A DNA stretch of 32,000 nt from contig NZ_CP147990.1 of the NCBI RefSeq assembly GCF_037902255.1, positions 4,170,001 to 4,202,000 of the forward strand, given 5' to 3'. Position 1 is the first letter of the stretch. Each line of letters starts with the position of its first letter. This DNA comes from Candidatus Electrothrix sp. GW3-4. GTDB taxonomy: Bacteria > Desulfobacterota > Desulfobulbia > Desulfobulbales > Desulfobulbaceae. Both the position numbers and the translations under genes were made by a program. Under the pieces are notes generated by a model. It worked only from the letters and a program-made list of their open reading frames with translations, ran no database searches and was not told the DNA's origin. Below, piece by piece: positions 6,052 to 19,554 of this stretch.

Positions 6052-7317
6052 ATGAAGGCTCCCAAGAACAGACGTGTTTTTGTGGTCGGCTATGATGCGG
6101 CCACCGCCTTGGGTAATACCTTTACCGCAACCTGGCAGGCCGCTATCGAAGGCCAGGCAGGCTTCCGCAGGGTTACCCGCTGCGCGACCGCCAGCCGCAG
6201 CAATGTGGTGGGGGAAATCCCGGACTGGGACCCCAGCCAGCTCCCCTATGTGGACCGGAAAGAGGCCTCGCTCTGGAATGCCGCCTATGTCTTCCTGACC
6301 ATGGAGGTCTGTCGCCGGGCCCTGGAACATGCCGGGCTGGAAATGAATGAGGAAACCGGTCCACGGACCGGCTGCCTGATCGGTTCGGCCCTGAACGGGA
6401 CTGATGCCTACCGAATTGCGACAGAGAACTATCGGGTCGGCGGCCCCTTTAAGGTCAGCCCCTATCTTCTGCCCAATGTCTGCGCCAACCTGCCCGGCGG
6501 CAAGGCGGGCATGCTCACCGGCTTTACCGGACCTATCTTCTCTCCCCAAGGGGCCTGCGCCTCAGGGAATCATGCCATTGCCCTAGGCGCCAGGATGATC
6601 CGGGATGGGGACTGTGATTTCATGCTGGCAGGCGGGGTGGAGACCTGCCTGGTCCCGGAAATTATCCAGGGGTTTTCCAATATGCTGGCCAGCATCAAGG
6701 TGGGGGAAAAGGACCGGGCCTTTAAGGATCCAACCCAGGCCTCTCGCCCCTTCAGTCTGGATCGCAAGGGCTTTGTCCTGGCCGAAGGAGCAGCCGTGCT
6801 GGTGCTGGCCGCAGAAGAGGCAGTGCAGGCCCTGGGACTCCAGCCAAAGGCAGAGGTTTTAGGGATAGGCTGGAACTCAGATGCCCACCATTTTACCCGG
6901 CCCAACGCAACTACCATAATTCGGGCCATCCATGATGCCTTGGATGATGCGGAGATCAGCGCCGAGGACATCGGCTCCATCAATGCCCACGGCACCTCTA
7001 CCCCCACCGGAGATGCAACTGAGGTGGAATGCCTGCGCAGGGTCTTTGGCGAGGCCCTGTCCGGCATACCGATCTCAGCCAATAAATCCCAGGTCGGGCA
7101 TTCCCTGGGGGCCTCAGCGGCCATCGAAGCATCCCTCTCTATCGAGGCCATGAATAAAGGCTTGGTTCTACCCACGGTGAATCATATCCCGGATCCCGCC
7201 TTTGCTGACCTGGATGTGGTGCCCAATGTGGTACGTAATCATAGTTATGAATATGTCCTGTCCAACTCCTTTGGTTTTGGTGGAACCAACTGCTGTCTCG
7301 TGTTCCGAGGTATCTGA
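6052..7317 (+). CDS. Beta-ketoacyl-ACP synthase (KAS II/FabF-like), complete Cys-His-His triad
   Basis: Motifs present: PQGACASGNHAIA, SDAHHFTRP, INAHGTSTPTGD, NKSQVGHSLGASA and NSFGFGGTNC. It starts 4 nt after the previous stop. Confidence 0.9.
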   Translation: MKAPKNRRVFVVGYDAATALGNTFTATWQAAIEGQAGFRRVTRCATASRSNVVGEIPDWDPSQLPYVDRKEASLWNAAYVFLTMEVCRRALEHAGLEMNEETGPRTGCLIGSALNGTDAYRIATENYRVGGPFKVSPYLLPNVCANLPGGKAGMLTGFTGPIFSPQGACASGNHAIALGARMIRDGDCDFMLAGGVETCLVPEIIQGFSNMLASIKVGEKDRAFKDPTQASRPFSLDRKGFVLAEGAAVLVLAAEEAVQALGLQPKAEVLGIGWNSDAHHFTRPNATTIIRAIHDALDDAEISAEDIGSINAHGTSTPTGDATEVECLRRVFGEALSGIPISANKSQVGHSLGASAAIEASLSIEAMNKGLVLPTVNHIPDPAFADLDVVPNVVRNHSYEYVLSNSFGFGGTNCCLVFRGI

Positions 7318-7796
7318 TGCGACCTAAACCCTTTCGTCCTCAGCCCTTAGAAAATCCCTCCTTTGTCCGCGATACTACCAGCGGCCTGGTCTGGTTTCGC
7401 TGCGAAATGCGGACCCTGTACATTGACACTGATCGTTCCCAGGTGGTCTATCATTCCAATTACCTCAAGTATTTCGAATTTGCCAGGGCTTCCCTGATGC
7501 GGGAGACCAAGTACCCGTATAAGCAGATAGAGGAGGACGGCTTTGTCTATCCCATCATCAAGACCGAGCTGAACTATTATTCGCCGCTCTTTTATGATGA
7601 TCTGATGTACATCCACATCCGTCCCGGAAAACTCGAACGCGTCAGGCTTCAGTTTGAGTACCTGATCACCAAGGCGGAGCAGGGCGAGATCTCCTGCACC
7701 GGCTTTACCCGCCATTGCGCAATAAATGAAAAGGGGGTACCGGTGGAGATTGATCCACAGACCCTGCGCCTCTGGCAGGAATTTCCTGATTCATGA
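7317..7796 (+). CDS. 4HBT/YbgC-type hotdog acyl thioesterase
   Basis: YIDTDRSQVVYHSNYLKYFEFARASLMRE matches the D..(G)VV(Y)H..Y..YFE.AR signature of 4-hydroxybenzoyl-CoA thioesterase-family enzymes. The start overlaps the previous stop (TGATG, 7315-7319). Confidence 0.75.
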   Translation: MRPKPFRPQPLENPSFVRDTTSGLVWFRCEMRTLYIDTDRSQVVYHSNYLKYFEFARASLMRETKYPYKQIEEDGFVYPIIKTELNYYSPLFYDDLMYIHIRPGKLERVRLQFEYLITKAEQGEISCTGFTRHCAINEKGVPVEIDPQTLRLWQEFPDS

Positions 7797-8605
7797 GCAA
7801 CGAACGCCTTCCTGTCACGCTCCCTGTTCAACCTTGGTTCCAGGACCATTCCTTTGCCGGTAAAATCGTTCTCCCTGCGGTGGAAAGTCTCCAGCTGCTC
7901 GCAGCGCACGTTGCCGAAGCCTTTCCCGGCGCAGATATCTCTGTTATGGAGGACATGCGCTTTGCTAAGTTTCTTGAAATCCCGCCTGAGGCCACGGAGA
8001 TGGATGTTCTGGTTGAATTCGCTCCTGCTGGGGAGAGGGTAGGGGCTCAGCTCCTCACCCGGAAGGCATGCGGGAAGATGAGCAGGATCAAGGAACACAG
8101 CCAAGTCTTTTTTCCCCTGGCGGCGGGAGAACGCCCGCCTTCCCAGCTTGATCCAACCCTGCCTGCAAACGCGCTGCAAAAAATTCCTGTTGAACAGCTC
8201 TATCGTGAATTAGTGCCTTTCGGCCCGCAGTACCAGACTCTTCAGGAGAGGTTGTTTTTGTATGAGGACAGTGCCTGGGGCGTTCTGAAAGCACCTTTGC
8301 TTCCCTTGGTCTCTACGGTTCAGGAACAGATCGGTTCACCTTTTCCCTTGGATGGTGCCATGCATGCGGCCAGTGTTTTGGGGCAGCAGAAGGTGGACTT
8401 TACCCCCTTACCGATTGGTATTGATCAACGGATTATCCTGCTTCCGACCCAGCCTAGTGGTGAATACCTGACTAAGGTGTCCGCTGTCGCGCTGTCAGAG
8501 AAGGAGCTGGTGTTCGATTTGGTGATTCTTGATAGGGCTGGGCAGGTTTATGAGGTGGTGAAGGGTTTGAGGATGCGGGATGTGCGTGGGGGGATGAGGA
8601 TATAG
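7793..8605 (+). CDS. Stand-alone polyketide-synthase-type (double hotdog) dehydratase
   Basis: QDHSFAGKIVLP fits the PKS DH motif HxxxGxxxxP. A second-half motif, PLDGAMHAA, fits DxxxH/Q. The 270-aa length fits a double hotdog fold. There is an ATGA overlap with the upstream gene (7793-7796). Confidence 0.7.
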   Translation: MSNERLPVTLPVQPWFQDHSFAGKIVLPAVESLQLLAAHVAEAFPGADISVMEDMRFAKFLEIPPEATEMDVLVEFAPAGERVGAQLLTRKACGKMSRIKEHSQVFFPLAAGERPPSQLDPTLPANALQKIPVEQLYRELVPFGPQYQTLQERLFLYEDSAWGVLKAPLLPLVSTVQEQIGSPFPLDGAMHAASVLGQQKVDFTPLPIGIDQRIILLPTQPSGEYLTKVSAVALSEKELVFDLVILDRAGQVYEVVKGLRMRDVRGGMRI

Positions 8606-8802
8606 GCTTTTTTTCGTGTTTATTGATGAGTTCACATAAAACAACTAACAAACAGTACTGATAACGGAAATCTGGGCAGAATGAAAACCTTAAACGTTGA
8701 TGACCTGGTAAAAAGTCAGAAATTAGCAAATCGCTAACGACAACTCAGTAAGTTACAATACGAAATATCGCGAAATCGGACTTTTTACGAATCCATCAAA
8801 CG

Positions 8803-9639
8803 TTATTCTTCAGAGAAAGGAGATACAACTTTTTTCCCAAGAGCTGAAACTATTGGTTCGTGATCTTTAAGGTTTGTTGTGAGTAGTTCAGCATCATTTG
8901 GACATAAAAAAGCAAAGACAGCGTCACCAAGCCATCTGCAATCCCTGTCATTTAAATCGCAACGAGGATGTTTTAATATTCTTTTTATTACTTTTAGTCT
9001 GTTCGTATTTTCTCGTTTTTCAGAATCATTTTCGATGGCATCCTTGATCAGTTCCAAGTGCTTTAAGTTTCCTAACATCATTTTTTTAACACTGCAATCA
9101 TTACTATTATCACATTTAACAGGCTTGTCTTGAATGAGTCCTGTTGATTCTTCAAATGGATCTTTCTCGCTATAGCAATTCAAAGGAAAGATCACATCTG
9201 TAGCAATCTTTCTTCTTCTTTTCCAAGCCTTAAAAATTATAACTTTTAAGGCCAATCTTGATTCGTCATATATAATTTTATCCATTTCAGGAGCAGGATC
9301 TCCATACTTGGAAAGTAAATCTTGAGGGGTTAGCTTTGCAATTGAATTGTCATGAGCAACTTTTAGTGCTTCAAGAGCCGTTGAAGTTTTGTAACGTTGA
9401 GGGGTTCTTGAAAGTTTCTGTATAGCATCAATAGTTTCACTATAGGACTCTGTTGAGACTAACTTGTTATGTGCATATACATAATTTCTTAACGGTCCCG
9501 CTTTAAACTCTTTGATCGCATAAACAGGGAGAAGGGTGGTTTCATAGTTAGCAAGAGCCTTTTTAGCTAAATTATGCTGTTTGCCTGATTTTACAAGTAG
9601 ATCGGTTAAAATGGTTGTGTCGATAAATGCCTTACTCAT
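8803..9639 (-). CDS. Split PIN-like nuclease-domain protein with inserted Cys-pair region (third gene of AT-rich operon)
   Basis: The N-terminus MSKAFIDTTILTDLL looks like a PIN first strand with its acidic residue, followed by YAIKEF. The C-terminus WLGDAVFAF..AELLTTNLKDHEPI resembles the PIN distal D...A and T.(D/N)..D(F/H) motifs. The roughly 180-aa insert carries KCDNSNDC and RCDLNDRDC. The start overlaps the upstream stop (ATGAGTAA, 9632-9639). The domain call rests on motif recollection, not a search. Confidence 0.55.
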   Translation of the reverse strand: MSKAFIDTTILTDLLVKSGKQHNLAKKALANYETTLLPVYAIKEFKAGPLRNYVYAHNKLVSTESYSETIDAIQKLSRTPQRYKTSTALEALKVAHDNSIAKLTPQDLLSKYGDPAPEMDKIIYDESRLALKVIIFKAWKRRRKIATDVIFPLNCYSEKDPFEESTGLIQDKPVKCDNSNDCSVKKMMLGNLKHLELIKDAIENDSEKRENTNRLKVIKRILKHPRCDLNDRDCRWLGDAVFAFLCPNDAELLTTNLKDHEPIVSALGKKVVSPFSEE

Positions 9640-10279
9640 TAAAGCCAGCCATCATTTGGTCAACATGAGCTGGATTAATATTAAATTCAAGATCTTCTAA
9701 ATCCATTATCATGTCTATTGATTCTTCAAATTGAATAAACGGCTCTTCCTGTATTTTTCTCAAGATAGAAGCGATCTGATTAATCTGAGTCTCTGTGGTT
9801 AAAGCTCCATGGTCACGGTTGGCTAACGCATGGAAAAGAGCACTAACTACCGCACCAAATCCATCCCCGAGACTTCTGCAGCAAAAAAGTTCTGCCAATA
9901 TTTTTGCAAGATGAAGCATGGCGTTATCTTGCCCGATGAAATCATCATTTTTTAGTGACTCTCGAGCCTCTGTAATTTCTTCGATGGCTTTGTCTAACAA
10001 CAGCAAAGCTTTGTTAAATAATGGGGTTATTGACTCCTGGCAAGGATATAACGCTCTGGTTTTTATCTTCTCTACATAATCACGAGAATAATAGGCTTCA
10101 TCGTCTATAATTTTAATCGAGTCTTTTGCAATTTTAGAATTTAAAGTACCAGTTAAGGGATCTGTATCTAATTGAATGCTAATGTCATCAGCAGAAACAC
10201 AATCTGATGTTTCATCTGATTGGATTTCAATAGGGAAAATAGACTCACCGGTTTCTTTTAAATTATAATCACTATTCAT
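9632..10279 (-). CDS. Hypothetical protein, acidic N-terminal tail and helical C-terminal half (second gene of AT-rich operon)
   Basis: 215-aa ORF, overlapped at both ends by its neighbours (ATGA at 10276-10279). The N-terminal ~45 aa are rich in D/E/S. I recognised no motif. Confidence 0.65.
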   Translation of the reverse strand: MNSDYNLKETGESIFPIEIQSDETSDCVSADDISIQLDTDPLTGTLNSKIAKDSIKIIDDEAYYSRDYVEKIKTRALYPCQESITPLFNKALLLLDKAIEEITEARESLKNDDFIGQDNAMLHLAKILAELFCCRSLGDGFGAVVSALFHALANRDHGALTTETQINQIASILRKIQEEPFIQFEESIDMIMDLEDLEFNINPAHVDQMMAGFNE

Positions 10280-10977
10280 TTGAGATCTCCCAGGACCATT
10301 TTACTATCTCGCTTAATAAGGTGATGCACTTGCGAAACCCATTCAGCTACATTTAATTGACTTGGTTTTACAGGTAATCTTGTGTAATAATCAACATCAT
10401 AATTAAGTATAATATTTTTTAAAGATTGGCTTTCTAATTCATCAAGACCAATCGGCTTTTCAAAAGCATACTGCTTTATTGCTACTTTAAACGTTTGAGA
10501 CACACCTAAATTGTCATCTTCAATTCTGAAAGAAAAAGAAGGCTCTTTTATCTTTCCCTCAATATTAAAAAAATTCCCGTCTGGAATCTTTAATTTCTGG
10601 GTATTTAAAATTAAATCGGCAGCATGATCTTGATCATCGCATTTTTTTTCGTAAAAAAAACGGGATCCAACACGTATAAAAAGTTTAATATCAAGAATGT
10701 TACGAACTAACTTGATAAATTTCTCTTGCTCTTTAATTATTTCTTTTATCCCAGAGTGATAAACTATTACAAAAGCCTTATTGATATCGACTTGAAGGCT
10801 AATTTTATCTTTAACTCTAAATGATTGTCTATTTGGATCAACAGCTTGAGGGATAATGTCTGGCCAAATTTTAGCCGCCTCTGTCCACAATTCACCGGTT
10901 TTGTCCCACAGGCTATAAGCATTGTCATATCGTATTTCACAAGTAACTCGATTAAGACTAAAATCCGAAATGTGCAT
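10276..10977 (-). CDS. Hypothetical protein, possibly TIGR04255-family-like (first gene of AT-rich operon)
   Basis: I chose the ATG at 10977 (MHISDFSLNRV..) because AAGGA lies 5 nt upstream (complement of tcctt at 10983-10987); the listed 11013 start has no such site. The N-terminus LNRVTCEIRYDNAYSLWDKTGELWTEAAKIWPD resembles, from memory, the start of the uncharacterised TIGR04255 family. Confidence 0.6.
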   Translation of the reverse strand: MHISDFSLNRVTCEIRYDNAYSLWDKTGELWTEAAKIWPDIIPQAVDPNRQSFRVKDKISLQVDINKAFVIVYHSGIKEIIKEQEKFIKLVRNILDIKLFIRVGSRFFYEKKCDDQDHAADLILNTQKLKIPDGNFFNIEGKIKEPSFSFRIEDDNLGVSQTFKVAIKQYAFEKPIGLDELESQSLKNIILNYDVDYYTRLPVKPSQLNVAEWVSQVHHLIKRDSKMVLGDLK

Positions 10978-11404
10978 ATATATCCTTATTGATAAATAAT
11001 TTAAGCAGAACAACAGGAAGATGAATAGAATTGTTCAATTCTGTAGGCTAATTTAATGTTACACATGAATATCTTACAGGGCAAGAAAGAAAAGAACAGA
11101 AAAATTAAAATTTATCCCCATTGAGGGCTAACGTTAGTAAAGAAACTCATTTTGTTAGCAAAGACCGAGAGTGTCTTTGATTTACTCTCGCAATCGACCT
11201 GCGGAGAGGTGCTGGGAACAGGGTGGGGCTCACGTTCGAATTTCACAGCTAGGACAAAAACGGGTCACATGCAACGCCCGCCTGACAAACAGAAAAGGAA
11301 CAAGGAAGCTGGCACATCGTGGGAATTTATTGTAAGTGTATAAGAAATACATAAGAGGTGAATATATCCTTCCAATATAACTATTCATTACGAGGCCAAA
11401 AACA

Positions 11405-12775
11405 ATGAAATATATCGTACTGTTCTGCGCCCTCCTCCTCTCCACATCCTGCCTATCACAAAGCGCAGCAGGAAGTCCTCTTCATCCCATTCTTAATACA
11501 CAACGCCCAGAACCTGCTACGCAGGACTATTTTGACCAGACCGTGCACAACAATCTCCAGGTGGCCAAAGAGAAAGCACTGAGCCTAATTGACCTGCATT
11601 TTCATGATACGGGAAAAAGACTTTTCGTTCCTGGACAATACAAGACCATCCAGTCGGCCATTAATGCCGCAACAGCGGGTGATTCCGTGGTCGTTATGGA
11701 AGGGATCTATTATGAACAACTGGTCATGAAGGATGGGGTGAAGCTTATTTCAGATGCCTCCAACGATGGTGATGTACTCGTTCCCGTCGATCAGGCAATT
11801 TTACAGCTGCCCCGCAGGACCTTGCGGACGATTATCGACGGCTCCAAGGCCTCCCCATCCCATCACGGTATGTTTGACTTCACCGAGGGACTCGGCTCCA
11901 CCACCATTATTGATGGCTTCACGATCCAGAATCTGCCCAAGCAGAACCACCACGATCCAGGCCATGCCCATGCTATCAATATGCGAGGGGCAAGTGCTGT
12001 GGTCATGAACTGCCTTATCCGCAAGAATGGTTCCACCGGCATTGGCAACCACGTCTTTTTCAAGGATCAAAAACAGCCCATATCCACCCGTGATTTTCGT
12101 TGGCAGAATATCCGGACCAGATCTTCCGCAGTGCTCTATCACAATATTATCAGCGATAATTTTGGCTTAGGTATTGGATGCAACCATTTTTCCACCCCCT
12201 GGGTCTTGGGAAATGAAATTTTTGGCAACGATGATGCAGAACTCACCGGAATCCCCTCACCAGGGATTGGCGTGAAACACGGGGCAGCGCCTAACATTCT
12301 CGGCAATCTCGTGCATGATAACCCCGGTGGCGGCATTCTGACCAAGAAAGGGGAGCCCCAAGGAAAACAGCAGATCGACAAGCCGACCGCTCCCCTGATT
12401 GCACAAAATATCGTCTTCAGCAATGGCAAGGACAAACCGGGCATAGGTAATGAGGCTGCCGGTTCAATAGCGCTTCCCGTCAGAATCCTTAAAAATCTTG
12501 TGACAAGAGAACGCGCTGTCGGGATTGGCTTAATGAGCGGGGGCGTGAGTATTGTGGAGGAAAATCGTGTTGACCAGACCGGATCAGTGGGGATAGCCGT
12601 TAATAACAGCACGGTCCTGAAACTGAACCGGAACCGCATAACAAAGACTGGTGCGCCAGGTATTGTTCTTGTCTCCGATTCAAAGGTTCATGAGATGAAA
12701 GATAATAGCATGACCAATACCCGTGGGCCAAAGTTTATAATAGAAGATAGTCAGGTTTCCTCTCCCATGTTATAA
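11405..12775 (+). CDS. Secreted (possibly lipoprotein) right-handed parallel beta-helix repeat protein
   Basis: Signal peptide MKYIVLFCALLLSTSCLSQSAAG. A recurring ~22-25 aa periodicity with G(I/V)G(N/C/V/L) and N-x-I/V turns (DGFTIQN, GIGN, GIGC, GIGV, GIGL, GIAV, GIVL) is typical of PbH1/pectate-lyase-fold repeats. Confidence 0.75.
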   Translation: MKYIVLFCALLLSTSCLSQSAAGSPLHPILNTQRPEPATQDYFDQTVHNNLQVAKEKALSLIDLHFHDTGKRLFVPGQYKTIQSAINAATAGDSVVVMEGIYYEQLVMKDGVKLISDASNDGDVLVPVDQAILQLPRRTLRTIIDGSKASPSHHGMFDFTEGLGSTTIIDGFTIQNLPKQNHHDPGHAHAINMRGASAVVMNCLIRKNGSTGIGNHVFFKDQKQPISTRDFRWQNIRTRSSAVLYHNIISDNFGLGIGCNHFSTPWVLGNEIFGNDDAELTGIPSPGIGVKHGAAPNILGNLVHDNPGGGILTKKGEPQGKQQIDKPTAPLIAQNIVFSNGKDKPGIGNEAAGSIALPVRILKNLVTRERAVGIGLMSGGVSIVEENRVDQTGSVGIAVNNSTVLKLNRNRITKTGAPGIVLVSDSKVHEMKDNSMTNTRGPKFIIEDSQVSSPML

Positions 12776-12986: not shown

Positions 12987-13334
12987 CTAGAATTTCGGGG
13001 CAATTTTCTGCGCCATCTCATTCTGCAGCCCAGCCATCTTCTCAGGAAGGATCATTTCCTTCACAACAGGCATCATGGCGGTCTCAATTTTAGGCATCAA
13101 GTCGCTGATCAGCGGCTTGGAGTTAAGTTTTTCCCCCATAACCTGATCTCTTTTTTCTATCATCACGTTCTTAATAACCGGTGATGACAGAACCTCACTC
13201 ATAGCATTGTTTACCTGAGAGCTTCCTGTCCCTGCCGGTATATCTACCGCAGAAGCCGTATTGGCCGAAAATGCAAACGCAGCCAATGATAACAACAATG
13301 CTGACTTAATAGCCATTGATTTCACTCCAGACAT
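12987..13334 (-). CDS. Small secreted Met-rich protein, unknown function
   Basis: I chose the ATG at 13334, preceded by AAAGGAGG (complement of 13341-13348). Signal peptide MSGVKSMAIKSALLLSLAAFAFSANTASA. The mature ~86 aa contains 9 Met. The listed longer start (13421) lacks an RBS. Confidence 0.75.
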   Translation of the reverse strand: MSGVKSMAIKSALLLSLAAFAFSANTASAVDIPAGTGSSQVNNAMSEVLSSPVIKNVMIEKRDQVMGEKLNSKPLISDLMPKIETAMMPVVKEMILPEKMAGLQNEMAQKIAPKF

Positions 13335-13657
13335 TTTTTCCTCCTTTTTATGATAAAAACTGTACCACGATGTGCGGCACAACAACTTTACTTTATTATT
13401 CTGAAAATCCCAAAAAGTCAATTTTTTTTACTCTCACTTTAAATAAGATGGTCTGGTAAAAAGTCAAAAAATAGCAAATCTGCTCAGGATGAGTAAAAAA
13501 GATACACAACCATATCATAAAAAAAATGCCGAGGTCCGAGGAAAAGGAAGATTAAGAGGAGCGTATTGGATAATGACGCAACGACAATATTTGCTTTCGA
13601 AAACTCAGTGTAATGATCACGGAGGAGGGGATACACTGTTGAAGGAAACATGTAAAA

Positions 13658-16339: not shown

Positions 16340-16740
16340 TTGCGTTCTCCTTTGATTAAATTAATTCGAAAAAGAATGAGCTCGATAATGTCATTTTTAT
16401 AATTTTATTCACACAAAGATGTTTTTCTATATATTTATAACTCTAACCCGAAGGAATTGTTGCACGGGAAACATGGGCGTACAGTTGAAGAGAAAAACGT
16501 AAATTTGATAATTAATCGCATTTTAAGGCATTTGTCAATCAACAAATTTCTTCAATTCCTTTTTGTAGGAGAGATCAAGAAGGCATTTTTTTCTTCTCTC
16601 CCTGTTTGGAAAGAGAATTTTTTCCCCAGTAGCTCCTTTCTCTTCTGAGAAAAAAATGCTTTTTTTGTAAAAAAATATCAAAACGGGCCAATCCCGCTGT
16701 TGACAGGTCTATAATATATTTATTTTTTTAATATTATTAA

Positions 16741-16766
16741 CTCCCTTGCCATCTATAGCAAGGGAG
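16741..16766 (-). terminator. Possible terminator hairpin downstream of dnaN
   Basis: CTCCCTTGC (16741-16749) pairs with GCAAGGGAG (16758-16766), with an 8-nt loop. On the minus strand it is followed by the A/T-rich TTAATAATATT rather than a clean U-run. Confidence 0.35.
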
Positions 16767-16816
16767 AAAAGAGAAGAGCCGTAGGGACCCTTCTCTCTTG
16801 TGAGCGACGCAGGAAG

Positions 16817-17947
16817 TTAATTGAGCTTCATTGGCATAATTATCCCCAAAAAGCCTTCATCTTCTTCTGAAGTAATGAGGCATGGACTTTCATTGGAACT
16901 GATCGAAGCCTGGATGCTTTCTCCCTCCATAACCTGAAGCGCCTCCATAAAATACCGACAATTGAATCCCATGGACAATTTTTCTCCGGTATATTCGATA
17001 GCTATTTCATCTCTTGCCGAACCGAAATCAGCATGTTCTGAGGTCAACACCAGCTGATTATTATTTAGCTCAAATTTGATGGCATGGAAGATATCTTCAG
17101 TAAAGAGATTGATCCTCTTTAAGGACTCGAGAAAGAGGATTTTGTTGATAAAAATATTACTCTCTTTTGGGATGAAACTGAGGATATTCTCAAAATCGGG
17201 AAATTCTCCTTCCATCAACCTGATTACAAGCAGAGCGTCATCACTTTTCAAGACAATCTTTTTCTTTTCAATCCCCAATTGAAAGGTATCCTGCTCCTCT
17301 CCGAATTTTCGTATCTGCTGGATCCCTCGCCGTGGAATCAAAATAAATTTATCAAAATTGGGCAAAGACGCCCCCTCAATCTCTCTGCGCATAATACTGA
17401 GCCGATGGCCATCTGACGTGACCATGCGGAAGATTGTTTTTTCGTCTTCAATAACCTGCTGAAAAAGCGCAGCATTAAGACTATACATATTTTCTTTTTC
17501 TGTCGCGATAGAAAATACGGTTTTGTCGATGAGATCACAAAGAATTTCTCCCTCGGTTTCCACCAATTCCTCTTCATTATACTGCTCGAATTGGGGAAAT
17601 TCCTCTGTCACCATACCGGCAAGTTTATAGGTACTGCTGCCTGCGGTGATATTGATCCAATTTTTTTCACCTTCTTTAAAGTTCAATGTCGGTGACCCTG
17701 ATTCCCGAGCCAACTCAAAAAGTTTTTTCGAGGGAACAGTCAGGCTGCCTGTCTCAAAGACTTCTGCTGGAACGGTCTGTCTGAGGCTGATCTCCAAATC
17801 CGTTGCGGTAAAAACAATTTCATTATTTTTTACCTCCATCAGAACGTTTGCCAGGATGGCAAGGGTTCCTTTTTTATTCGTAATCTGTTGTTGCGTACCT
17901 ATTGCTTTGAGAAGATCTTCTCGGGCTATATTAAAATGGAACGACAT
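16817..17947 (-). CDS. dnaN: DNA polymerase III beta sliding clamp
   Basis: 376 aa. The N-terminus MSFHFNIAREDLLKAIGTQQQITNKKGTLAILANVLMEV and the overall three-domain length are typical of DnaN. AAGGAG lies upstream of the ATG at 17947. Confidence 0.95.
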   Translation of the reverse strand: MSFHFNIAREDLLKAIGTQQQITNKKGTLAILANVLMEVKNNEIVFTATDLEISLRQTVPAEVFETGSLTVPSKKLFELARESGSPTLNFKEGEKNWINITAGSSTYKLAGMVTEEFPQFEQYNEEELVETEGEILCDLIDKTVFSIATEKENMYSLNAALFQQVIEDEKTIFRMVTSDGHRLSIMRREIEGASLPNFDKFILIPRRGIQQIRKFGEEQDTFQLGIEKKKIVLKSDDALLVIRLMEGEFPDFENILSFIPKESNIFINKILFLESLKRINLFTEDIFHAIKFELNNNQLVLTSEHADFGSARDEIAIEYTGEKLSMGFNCRYFMEALQVMEGESIQASISSNESPCLITSEEDEGFLGIIMPMKLN

Positions 17948-18107
17948 AGTAATTACTCCTTCTTTTTATATATAAAAGCTTATTATTAATATTAGGGACG
18001 TTAGTTTGTGGAAAAAGAGATTATCAGCTTGTTTTTTTGGGTCAAAATATGTGAACAAAAAACGTTTAGTGTCTGGAAATGGATTGTGTATATATTAGAT
18101 TTGATTG

Positions 18108-18162
18108 TTATCAACAATGTTTTAAGATGATTGTCAACAAGTTGCTAACAAGTTTTTCAACA
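18108..18162 (+). promoter_or_regulatory. Phased DnaA-box-like direct repeats (TTnTCAACA) in the dnaN/cobO intergenic region
   Basis: TTATCAACA (18108-18116), TTGTCAACA (18131-18139) and TTTTCAACA (18154-18162) are spaced exactly 23 nt apart. A degenerate TTGCTAACA lies at 18142-18150. Each differs from the TTATCCACA consensus by 1-2 positions. TGTGGAAAA (18007-18015) has 1 mismatch to TGTGGATAA on the other strand. Confidence 0.3.
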
Positions 18163-18194
18163 TTTTTTTCTGACGAGATTTCAAAGGGAATATT

Positions 18195-18719
18195 ATGCGC
18201 CAAAAAGGATTGATCCTTCTCTTCACCGGGCATGGCAAGGGGAAGACAACTGCTGCCCTCGGTATGACCATGCGGGCAGCAGGCCATGGGATGAAAACCT
18301 GTTTTCTTCAGTTCATTAAGGGGAGCTGGAAATACGGAGAGATGGAGGCAATGGCCCGTTTCAGGGAGGAGATTGATTTTTATGTTATGGGAAGAGGGTT
18401 TACCTGGAAATCAGATGATCTGGAAAAAGATAAGGCCGTGGCCCGGGAGGCCTGGGAAAAGGCCAAAGAGGTTATTATGTCAGGAAAGTATCATACCGTG
18501 GTGCTTGATGAGTTCACCTATCTGCTGAGGTACGGTATGATCGAAAAAGAGGAGGCCCTGGAGGTCCTTCGCAGGAAGCCGGAAGATCTCCATATCTGCA
18601 TCACCGGTCGTGATGCGGCGGAGGAACTCGTTGCACTTGCTGACCTGGTGACTGAAATGCAGCCGATCAAGCATCCGTATCAGCAAGGAATAAGGGCCCA
18701 GAAGGGGGTGGAATTTTAA
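18195..18719 (+). CDS. cobO: Cob(I)yrinic acid a,c-diamide / cob(I)alamin adenosyltransferase
   Basis: GLILLFTGHGKGKTTAALGMTMRAAGHGMKTCFLQFIKG carries the P-loop-like GxGKGKT(T/S)AA motif. With the ~175-aa size, this is characteristic of CobA/CobO/BtuR. Confidence 0.9.
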   Translation: MRQKGLILLFTGHGKGKTTAALGMTMRAAGHGMKTCFLQFIKGSWKYGEMEAMARFREEIDFYVMGRGFTWKSDDLEKDKAVAREAWEKAKEVIMSGKYHTVVLDEFTYLLRYGMIEKEEALEVLRRKPEDLHICITGRDAAEELVALADLVTEMQPIKHPYQQGIRAQKGVEF

Positions 18720-18754
18720 CAGGTTATTCGCTTCCTGAGAGATATCTTTTTTGT

Positions 18755-19132
18755 TTACAGAATTTTCCAGTTATATACAAGAGGATTGCTTGCATCCGGT
18801 TGCTTGCACCAATGGGTGTTGTTTTGATACAAGAGGATCTCCTGGAGAAATAAAAAGCTGTCTGGTTGCATAGAGGTAAACCGTAACGCCAGGCCATCAT
18901 TATCCTGCCTGACAACGGCGCAAACAGCCTTAATATACATTTGCGGATCACTTTCAGAGAAAGATAATTTTATATCACAGATATCACCTGCCTGTTGTTT
19001 AAACCACCCTTGCACATAGATTCCACCAAGGCTGAAATTGGTGGCAGAGCATGTATATTTATTCTTACCGAAATCTAGGGTAACAGGGCGAGGGAATTTA
19101 ATGCGGGAAAATTGACGTCTATTATACTTCAT
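18755..19132 (-). CDS. PilZ domain protein (c-di-GMP binding type)
   Basis: RRQFSR (RxxxR) and NFSLGG (D/NxSxxG) are the PilZ motifs. I prefer the ATG at 19132 (MKYNRRQF..), preceded by AAGGTGA, over the listed GTG at 19141. Confidence 0.8.
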   Translation of the reverse strand: MKYNRRQFSRIKFPRPVTLDFGKNKYTCSATNFSLGGIYVQGWFKQQAGDICDIKLSFSESDPQMYIKAVCAVVRQDNDGLALRFTSMQPDSFLFLQEILLYQNNTHWCKQPDASNPLVYNWKIL

Positions 19133-19554
19133 AGTGATCACCTTTGAAGAAGCAAGGAGTCCGCCAGAAGGAAATTGGTGGACAGAGACAAGGTCAATTT
19201 AAGTGCGAGTATAAAAAAAACTTCCATTTTTCATGAGGTTCTTGCTTTACACAAACAAAGCATCTCTTTGCTTCCTTGAAAGAGCAAATACTGCTCATTG
19301 GATGCATGGTCATCCAACGCTATGCATCGATCAATGTCCATAAAGAAAAGAGGCATTTTTTCTTTATGCCTATTCAAACAACATAACGGAAGAAAGGAAT
19401 TTTTCCAATACAAGATTTTGATTTCGGGAATGGGTTTTTCAACTCCTGCTTGGGAAGCTTGATTGCCAATGAATGGAATTCGCTGCCCTGTCTTTGATGC
19501 CGAAGATCAGCTTCTTTTTTTTTGCTAAGGCTGGCAATTGGTGCTGCAAACAGC

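Follow-up and report, generated by a model that had tools for sequence, protein, structure and literature searches.

The stretch of DNA analysed here, referred to as the window, comprises 32,000 nucleotides (nt) of the genome of Candidatus Electrothrix sp. GW3-4, a cable bacterium (NCBI RefSeq assembly GCF_037902255.1; contig NZ_CP147990.1, positions 4,170,001 to 4,202,000 of the forward strand). Its minus strand carries a trio of genes, designated A, B and C, that together make up a candidate conflict cassette (Table 1). An earlier note on this DNA had described three minus-strand genes with overlapping stop and start codons, and both the open reading frame (ORF) listing and the sequence agreed with this. 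The stop codon of gene A and the start codon of gene B overlap by 4 nt (ATGA at 10276-10279), and the stop codon of gene B and the start codon of gene C overlap by 8 nt (ATGAGTAA at 9632-9639). The gene A frame is open up to a TTG codon at 11013. However, the ATG at 10977 was taken as the start, because the sequence AAGGA lies 5 nt upstream of it and the product has the length of the deposited 233-amino acid (aa) protein, WGN25_18520, with which it is 100% identical. The gene C product is 100% identical to WGN25_18510 of the same organism.

Table 1. Location in the window of the cassette, its genes and the signals upstream of gene A
Feature	Coordinates	Strand	Remarks
Transferred cassette	8829-11115	minus	three genes and ~140 nt upstream of gene A; sole stretch shared with Ca. 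Electrothrix sp. ATG2
Gene A	10276-10977	minus	233 aa from ATG; ORF listing and sequence reading
Gene B	9632-10279	minus	215 aa; ORF listing and sequence reading
Gene C	8803-9639	minus	278 aa; ORF listing and sequence reading
Shine-Dalgarno sequence AAGGA	10983-10987	minus	5 nt upstream of gene A ATG; sequence reading
Conserved upstream block	11056-11097	minus	42 nt; 41 of 42 nt identical between the two Electrothrix copies (pairwise alignment)

The G+C content is 0.32-0.39 over positions 8501-11000, compared with 0.53-0.62 on the side of the lipid operon (lipid/PKS-like genes) and ~0.50 in the beta-helix gene, in agreement with the abrupt change that had been noticed from hand counts of G+C. 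The closest relative available for comparison of the cassette was Ca. Electrothrix sp. ATG2, and a blastn alignment of the ATG2 locus (L032; contig QYLD01000085) with the window gave one high-scoring segment pair (84.5% identity over 2293 nt) flanked by unrelated sequence. In ATG2, the cassette adjoins a gene for a CI/peptidase-S24 repressor and an integrase fragment, and the insertion site differs from that in GW3-4. In all 19 loci compared, the trio was also richer in AT than the flanking DNA, by a mean of 10 GC points (Wilcoxon p = 4e-6). The suggestion that this DNA is compositionally foreign was thus upheld both by composition and by the confinement of the similarity to ATG2. The cassette is horizontally mobile, and its presence in Electrothrix is the mark of recent gene flow from mobile elements.

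Genes A, B and C recur together in more than 60 independent loci, as the earlier note would have predicted. Among 80 metagenome loci surveyed, 44 included at least 1.5 kb of upstream sequence, and the order A-B-C on the same strand was found in 42 of these; gene B was present in all 16 further metagenome loci with room for B only. In 21 genome loci recovered using tblastn and hidden Markov model (HMM) searches, the three genes are adjacent and their order is kept wherever the contig permits. The hosts belong to at least four bacterial phyla and include Desulfobacterota, Syntrophia, Acidobacteriota, Alphaproteobacteria and Bacteroidota, and the complete trio also occurs on two IMG/VR contigs, even where the C protein is only 29% identical. 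Of 76 loci, 74 have a B stop that overlaps the C start, and in 39 of these the overlap is exactly 8 nt long and takes the form ATGnnTAA/TGA/TAG; genes A and B overlap or lie a few nt apart across the loci. Between the two Electrothrix genomes, the ratio of non-synonymous to synonymous substitution rates (dN/dS) is 0.30 for both A and B and 0.19 for C, indicating purifying selection.

The gene C family includes at least 343 relatives (90% clustering), which range from 270 to 300 aa and all lack Pfam domains, while the gene A family includes 877 representatives (50% clustering, E<=1e-3), 307 of them at E<=1e-30. Distribution is sporadic, with 21 matches to one peptide pattern among 185,579 species representatives. 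Transfer between phyla is evident; the C protein of the window shares 57% identity with that from Bacteroidales but 51% with that from Desulfobacter. Decayed copies were also found: gene A is split by an insertion sequence (IS) in locus L001, frameshifts are present in L022 and L024, and only remnants are left in L023 and L090. In L090, the remnant (positions 1903-2328) corresponds to HMM positions 164-221 of another C gene and lies directly upstream of an intact A-B-C set, which points to cassettes having been inserted in tandem, or replaced, at a single site.

The genetic context was annotated using Pfam or PADLOC for 15 loci, and mobile-element or defence genes were found in 10 of them. Proximity to such genes thus recurs in unrelated genomes, as an association that does not amount to a measured enrichment, and the remaining contexts are considered below. 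On the IMG/VR contig UViG_2852783553_000005 (L028; coordinates 6317-11577), a divergent trio with the 29% identical C protein is embedded among the tail genes of a Mu-like prophage, with a DNA-circularisation (gp43-like) gene on one side and the gp46/baseplate-J/gp48 genes on the other. It is accompanied by two small ORFs and an oppositely oriented gene for a 495-aa Schlafen/AlbA_2 protein, and this site looks like an accessory-gene or defence slot. In another context, a complete type I restriction-modification (R-M) system is located directly upstream of the trio on the same strand. An island with fragmented SIR2_2, TIR_2 and nSTAND1 genes (L118; coordinates 7892-10390) lies between IS110 and MULE transposase genes, and a further island (L119; coordinates 8154-10363) includes a ubiquitin-like conjugation module (E1/E2/JAB, represented by Prok-JAB and Prok-E2_B/ThiF) beside an integrase gene. 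NACHT, PRTase and DprA-like genes were found in one context, and HipA, a PIN toxin-antitoxin pair and an IS in another. Three further contexts have IS110, an EcoEI_R_C fragment and an Mrr-like gene, respectively.

Products of genes C, B and A

The gene C product was modelled using AlphaFold2 (predicted local distance difference test score (pLDDT) 94.9; predicted template modelling score (pTM) 0.91). The elements of the model follow the order beta1 (residues 3-6)-alpha-alpha-beta2 (34-38)-alpha, then a helical insert with a strand at 148-150, then alpha (231-245)-beta (250-253)-alpha-beta (270-272), and this order resembles that of a PIN core. The putative core is made up of residues 1-63 and 229-278, with the strand 148-150, and is split by a mostly helical insert measured at ~165 aa (residues ~64-229) rather than the ~180 aa estimated in the earlier note. 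When the model was compared with 350,542 PDB chains using Foldseek, PIN/VapC chains (2fe1, 5wzf, 5wz4, 5x3t) occupied ranks 1-5 and made up 13 of the top 34 matches. The target-normalised template modelling (TM) score with 3zvk_B was 0.52, in an alignment that spans the insert.

Conservation in gene C was assessed in an alignment of 46 sequences. No variation was seen at E44, D239, N256, D259, C155, C176, C182, T8, K46, G48, W139, Y156, E210 and G238, and conservation is 90% or higher at D7 and C234. The D-E-D-D tetrad formed by D7/E44/D239/D259 occupies the canonical topological positions, with the canonical gap of ~20 residues between the third and fourth members. Motifs in the C protein could be paired by eye with those of the PF01850 protein encoded in locus L001 (FIDTT with MLDTN, AIKEF with LAELL, LGDAVFAF with NDLHIAG and LLTTNLKDH with LILVSNNIREF). 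This pairing places the acidic residues in register with D7, E42, D98 and N115-E119 of the PF01850 protein, and the gap from the third acidic residue to the Asn is 17 residues in both. The C protein is basic across the loci (median isoelectric point (pI) 9.4), and two members of the family carry the JGI label 'predicted nucleic acid-binding protein'.

The two Cys pairs that had been singled out as a possible zinc site were partly misplaced, since the conserved set is C155, C176, C182 and C234; one Cys of RCDLNDRDC is kept and C155 had been overlooked. The conserved spacing is C-x20-C-x5-C-x51-C, and C234 lies five residues before D239, which suggests a metal site that would tie the insert to the active-site helix. 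Together, the model and the conserved residues indicate that C is probably a divergent PIN-like metal-dependent nuclease that no curated PIN model recognises.

Gene B encodes a protein that is acidic across the loci (median pI 4.5, range 4.2-5.2), so that B and C are complementary in charge. In an alignment, the N-terminal ~70 residues were found to be acidic and variable in length and sequence, and the C-terminal ~140 residues to be conserved and helical, with the motifs LYP, PELFCCRxLGDGFG and EPF. The helical C-terminal half described in the earlier note was therefore recovered, though the variable acidic part is at the N-terminus and is not a tail. No significant match to gene B was found in Pfam, NCBIfam, PADLOC or the PDB, and sub-threshold matches to FliS (in 3 of 16 B members) and YfdX were weak and were treated as noise. 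Among loci with upstream room, none has an intact C gene without any B. On its sequence and position, B is a candidate cognate inhibitor (antitoxin) of C.

A shorter arrangement was found in a group of loci (L033-L036 with L007) that includes the Deltaproteobacteria metagenome-assembled genome (MAG) contigs SESB01000336 and SERZ01000953. These carry a gene for a 151-aa B protein, consisting of the C-terminal domain only, followed by C, with no gene A in the locus, and upstream of the pair lies a truncated gene whose 127-aa product matches part of the R subunit (EcoEI_R_C) of type I restriction enzymes. As this A-less lineage recurs on several contigs, the minimal unit is the C-terminal domain of B together with C.

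Gene A is also missing from an Acidobacteriota MAG contig (JAFAZX010000036; L031, coordinates 8362-10014; the contig of L013 and L055), in which an in-frame fusion gene lies upstream of C. In the fusion, residues 64-382 make up a full pyruvate dehydrogenase (PDH) E1-alpha-like domain, which matches human PDHA1 at E 8e-88, and the conserved C-terminal domain of B is attached to it. A gene for E1-beta is not found next to it, while NACHT, DprA-like and PRTase genes are located nearby. The fusion could have been made by an insertion, or could be a variant in which another module replaces A.

Gene A encodes a near-neutral alpha/beta protein with a large antiparallel sheet backed by helices. The AlphaFold2 model (pLDDT 85, pTM 0.80) has the topology beta-alpha-beta4-alpha followed by beta-alpha-beta3-alpha. 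Positions E14, R16, W24, D25, G28, R102, G104, R106, D194 and D196 are conserved; E14, R16, R102, G104, R106, D194 and D196 are near-invariant, and the acidic set also includes D25 and E153. As the conserved residues alternate along the strands, they should share one face of the sheet. Foldseek comparison with the PDB found S-adenosylmethionine decarboxylase (AdoMetDC)/prozyme (E 8e-5, probability 1.0, TM ~0.35), McsB and the class II aminoacyl-tRNA synthetase core. Among viral structures, A0A515MGR4 was matched (E 1e-8, TM 0.51/0.57), along with several VETF-like large subunits of giant viruses. VETF carries a TBP-like domain, and the fold of A is possibly TBP-like. The alternating strand motifs ExR, RxGxR and DxD had pointed to a CYTH/triphosphate-tunnel enzyme, but this idea was rejected, as the first 50 PDB matches of A contained no protein of this kind and the model has an open sheet with helices.

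The resemblance of gene A to TIGR04255 had been proposed in the earlier note. The window protein itself gave no match to TIGR04255 at E<=1, but the family was matched by 5 of 18 A orthologues (best E 1.7e-4) and by 22 of 150 A-family representatives (best E 3.8e-9), and no other family recurs. Gene A is therefore a distant homologue of TIGR04255 that forms a separate branch and is not a member of it. Gene A is absent in two lineages (L033-L036 with L007, and L013/L031) and disrupted by an IS in a third (L001). As the catalytic residues of C are retained in each of these lineages, A is not what restrains C.

Upstream block and surroundings in the window

The 42-nt block upstream of gene A is more conserved between the Electrothrix copies than the coding DNA. 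It includes TTGCCC and TAACAT separated by 17 nt, hexamers that match 8 of 12 consensus positions, though a consensus scan did not flag it. The block is a weakly assigned candidate promoter or operator. Promoter and terminator scans gave results no better than those for shuffled sequence, and no Rfam family was found in 8500-11500. An imperfect inverted repeat (8697-8799) with 24-nt arms that are 79% complementary and 55 nt apart is located just 3' of the C stop codon. It lies outside the cassette shared with ATG2 and was not flagged as a terminator by the consensus scan.

The neighbours of the trio in the window are housekeeping genes, encoding KAS, a thioesterase, a PKS-type (polyketide synthase-type) dehydratase, a beta-helix protein, DAHP synthase, a dnaN-like product and cobO. 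No tRNA gene was found in the window and no integrase gene among these neighbours, and a repeat scan of the flanks did not detect direct or inverted repeats bounding the cassette. The dnaN-like gene, for a DNA polymerase III beta-clamp (16817-17947, minus strand; Pfam E ~1e-24 per domain, a moderate value), is located within a stretch of low G+C content (16501-19500; 0.37-0.41), well under the window average, and may be a divergent second copy or part of another foreign segment. A 144-aa ORF without a Pfam match (12987-13421, minus strand) lies between the beta-helix and DAHP synthase genes in a patch of 0.40-0.44 G+C, and its product has a hydrophobic N-terminal segment resembling a signal peptide.

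Proposed mechanism and alternative explanations

The trio is best read as a mobile conflict cassette in which C is a nuclease effector and B is its inhibitor, with a probability of about 0.55. In this mechanism, C would be a PIN-like nuclease, basic and dependent on Mg2+/Mn2+, that most likely cleaves RNA, with its helical insert tied to the active-site helix via a Cys4 site in which the metal is probably structural zinc. The acidic B protein would inhibit C, most likely by binding it through the C-terminal domain, and translational coupling would keep the B:C ratio fixed. A would be an accessory subunit that is dispensable for keeping C harmless and probably binds nucleic acid or a small ligand, and it would either target C or sense the trigger that frees C from B. 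Release of the nuclease on phage infection or on loss of the element would then lead to abortive-infection defence and/or stabilisation of the element. A role for A in binding a substrate or trigger is proposed because of the precedent of the tandem TBP-like domains of RnlA (PMC8266594), while a role as operon regulator, as in omega-epsilon-zeta, is a plausible alternative by analogy.

A number of observations weigh against this reading, some of them concerning the identification of C. The Foldseek E-values for C were only 0.1-4. The window C protein gave no Pfam match, with the PIN clan included, and among the 46 family members only three weak sub-threshold matches were found (PIN_3 in two, E 0.02; PIN in one, E 0.052). 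An hhalign comparison with the PF01850 protein was not significant, a 'core-only' C profile with the insert excised found nothing significant in the PDB or Pfam, and the C family profile had no match among PDB sequences. As the sequence-level tests were all insignificant, the PIN assignment rests on the fold ranking and the conserved residues, and to this extent the split PIN-like nuclease proposed in the earlier note was supported.

The same results would also fit a superficial likeness to PIN, in which case C would be a Cys4 protein with some other activity, such as that of a redox enzyme, an Fe-S-dependent enzyme or a binding scaffold, and the trio would work by a different mechanism. The four cysteines could hold an Fe-S cluster instead of zinc, and many of the hosts are anaerobes. 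However, a non-nuclease C is improbable given the placing of PIN/VapC chains at the head of the PDB ranking, the fit of the secondary-structure order to the PIN core, the four acidic residues at canonical positions with canonical spacing, and the JGI label on two family members.

Other points against the favoured mechanism concern B, A and the distribution of the trio. No recognisable DNA-binding domain was found in B using Pfam, NCBIfam and the PDB, and the conserved part of B is C-terminal, unlike that of typical type II antitoxins. In two unrelated loci, L017 (7437-8002) and L049 (5506-5999), gene B has an apparent frameshift at a similar position, just after the motif ALxNRxGxPL, while A and C are intact. 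Both are metagenome assemblies in which the frameshift coincides with a short homopolymer (G5) or an AT-rich run. Errors of assembly could explain this, or full-length B may not be essential. The fold assignment of A is loose, as its leading PDB matches (AdoMetDC/prozyme) have a TM of ~0.35 and the match to TBP had a probability of only ~0.5, and neither RnlA nor RNase HIII was among the top 50 PDB matches of A. The conserved face of A mixes acidic and basic residues, which favours a ligand or catalytic site over a simple nucleic acid-binding saddle. The trio was not found on sequenced phages or plasmids in tblastn searches with C, the divergent L028 C and the L028 A, and 5 of the 15 annotated contexts, including that in the window, consist of housekeeping genes only.

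The housekeeping contexts and the purifying selection on all three genes would also suit a non-toxic RNA- or DNA-processing complex, patchy in distribution and not part of a conflict system, in which a maturation or repair nuclease works with two cofactor subunits. Nob1, PRORP and HARP are PIN-like housekeeping processing nucleases with zinc modules. However, such a complex would not be expected to have so sporadic a distribution (21 among 185,579 species representatives), to cross phyla by transfer with a G+C content ~10 points under that of the host, or to occupy different insertion sites in the two Electrothrix genomes. Copies are often pseudogenised or IS-disrupted and are associated with prophage and defence-island genes, and an acidic inhibitor translationally coupled to a basic nuclease is typical of toxin-immunity pairs. 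A processing complex is therefore unlikely.

A closer competitor, though still a doubtful one, is a pure addiction module of the omega-epsilon-zeta type, with A as a DNA-binding operon regulator, B as antitoxin and C as toxin, carried as selfish cargo that stabilises integrative elements and has no dedicated anti-phage role. The gene order regulator-antitoxin-toxin is parallel, a separate regulator makes sense where B is without a DNA-binding domain, and both a possibly TBP-like DNA-binding fold for A and a near-invariant 42-nt block that might be its operator would fit. Integrases, IS elements and a prophage repressor adjoin the cassette, and many copies are solitary amid housekeeping genes, as toxin-antitoxin (TA) loci often are. 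However, the five acidic conserved positions of A (E14, D25, E153, D194 and D196) would be unusual on a DNA-binding face, A has been lost in some lineages that keep B and C, and the prophage accessory slot and the R-M, TIR, STAND and SIR2 neighbours are more typical of defence cargo. An addiction module also overlaps heavily with the favoured mechanism, as TA and abortive-infection functions are not exclusive.

The accessory slot in the L028 prophage and the R-M and TIR/STAND neighbourhoods tilt the balance towards a defence role. A more specific form of this role can be put forward tentatively, in which the trio would be the first example of a widespread family of three-component anti-phage systems of uncultured bacteria from soil and sediment. 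A would be a TIGR04255-related TBP-like sensor of phage nucleic acid or of a metabolite, and would trigger release of the split metal-cluster PIN nuclease C from an acidic, possibly nucleic acid-mimicking B. Loci with another module in place of A, of which the PDH-E1alpha-B fusion may be an example, would then point to sensors that can be exchanged.

In general terms, the trio can be classed among PIN-nuclease toxin-immunity cassettes, from which it is set apart by an unusual split effector bearing a Cys4 set and by a third component related to TIGR04255. As a concept it holds little surprise, since there are many other candidate modules built around a nuclease. If the favoured mechanism is correct, the trio would be a new nuclease-based conflict module made up of three protein families that are unannotated above threshold in Pfam, PADLOC and NCBIfam, and it would provide the first functional context for the orphan TIGR04255 superfamily. 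The architecture of C, in which a large insert would split the PIN core and be linked to the active-site helix by a Cys4 site, is unusual and could be a regulatory or redox switch. The trio is almost confined to uncultured Acidobacteriota, Desulfobacterota, Syntrophia, Alphaproteobacteria and Bacteroidota, lineages that functional screens based on Escherichia coli or Bacillus genomes would miss. With its clear boundaries and its conservation across a wide range of hosts, it is a good candidate for a new TA or anti-phage module.

Comparison with known systems

The earlier note had recognised no named system in these genes, and this held on searching. A, B and C had no match to any PADLOC-DB v2.0.0 model at E<=1 and none above the Pfam or NCBIfam threshold, and a description of the trio was not found in literature searches on TIGR04255, PIN-like three-gene and TBP-like defence topics, in which no paper mentioning TIGR04255 was found. 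The TIGR04255 family ('sporadTIGR04255') is the only one that A relatives match, and it shares with A a similar length and a sporadic distribution. However, most A-family members are below the reach of the model, and the family is itself of uncharacterised function.

The suggestion of a toxin-antitoxin-chaperone set was abandoned. No SecB or other chaperone match was found for A or B, the fold of A is AdoMetDC- or TBP-like, and A is upstream, not downstream, of the pair and is dispensable in some lineages.

Among PIN/NYN defence candidates, HEC-03 (ABC ATPase and PIN) and HEC-09 (Payne et al. 2024 preprint, 10.1101/2024.01.29.577857) resemble the trio in having a PIN-like effector with non-antitoxin partners in phage-defence contexts, but the partner proteins, such as the ABC ATPase, are unrelated. 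RnlAB and LsoAB combine an RNase toxin, tandem TBP-like domains and a dedicated antitoxin in abortive-infection-type defence, and the RNase toxin RnlA depends on its tandem TBP-like domains to bind the RNA substrate (PMC8266594). A resembles them in the duplicated beta-alpha-beta(n)-alpha topology and in its weak matches to TBP and VETF. However, RnlA fuses the TBP-like domains to a HEPN RNase, whereas here A is separate and the nuclease is PIN-like, and there is no sequence similarity. As RnlA was not among the top 50 structural matches of A, the likeness is architectural only.

A closer parallel in gene organisation is provided by omega-epsilon-zeta and paaR2-paaA2-parE2, which are sets of three co-transcribed genes in which the last two encode an antitoxin and a toxin and the first can be lost or replaced. 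The trio is similarly a three-gene operon with a candidate antitoxin-toxin pair in the last two positions and with A lost in some lineages. However, the protein families are unrelated, and A is a 233-aa alpha/beta protein and not a small ribbon-helix-helix (RHH) or helix-turn-helix (HTH) repressor.

As in type II TA systems, B and C are adjacent, co-oriented and nearly always overlapping, and B accompanies every intact C that has upstream room (with B interrupted in L017 and L049), though searches of B against Pfam, NCBIfam and the PDB did not find the DNA-binding antitoxin of such systems. Compared with VapBC in particular, C is twice the size of VapC, with the ~165-aa helical insert and the conserved Cys4 set, and is not recognised above threshold by a Pfam PIN model; B is without an RHH, AbrB, HTH or Phd-type DNA-binding domain and has its conserved domain at the C-terminus, and a third conserved gene, A, is located upstream of the pair. 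In other respects the two are alike. In both, the upstream gene overlaps a downstream gene for a PIN-like protein, and the two products are an acidic protein and a basic nuclease, a probable one in the case of C. The signature of four acidic active-site residues is shared, with the motifs DTT, E, DAxxA and TTNxxD in C. Both are mobile, patchy in distribution and often decayed, and VapC proteins are the best structural matches of C.

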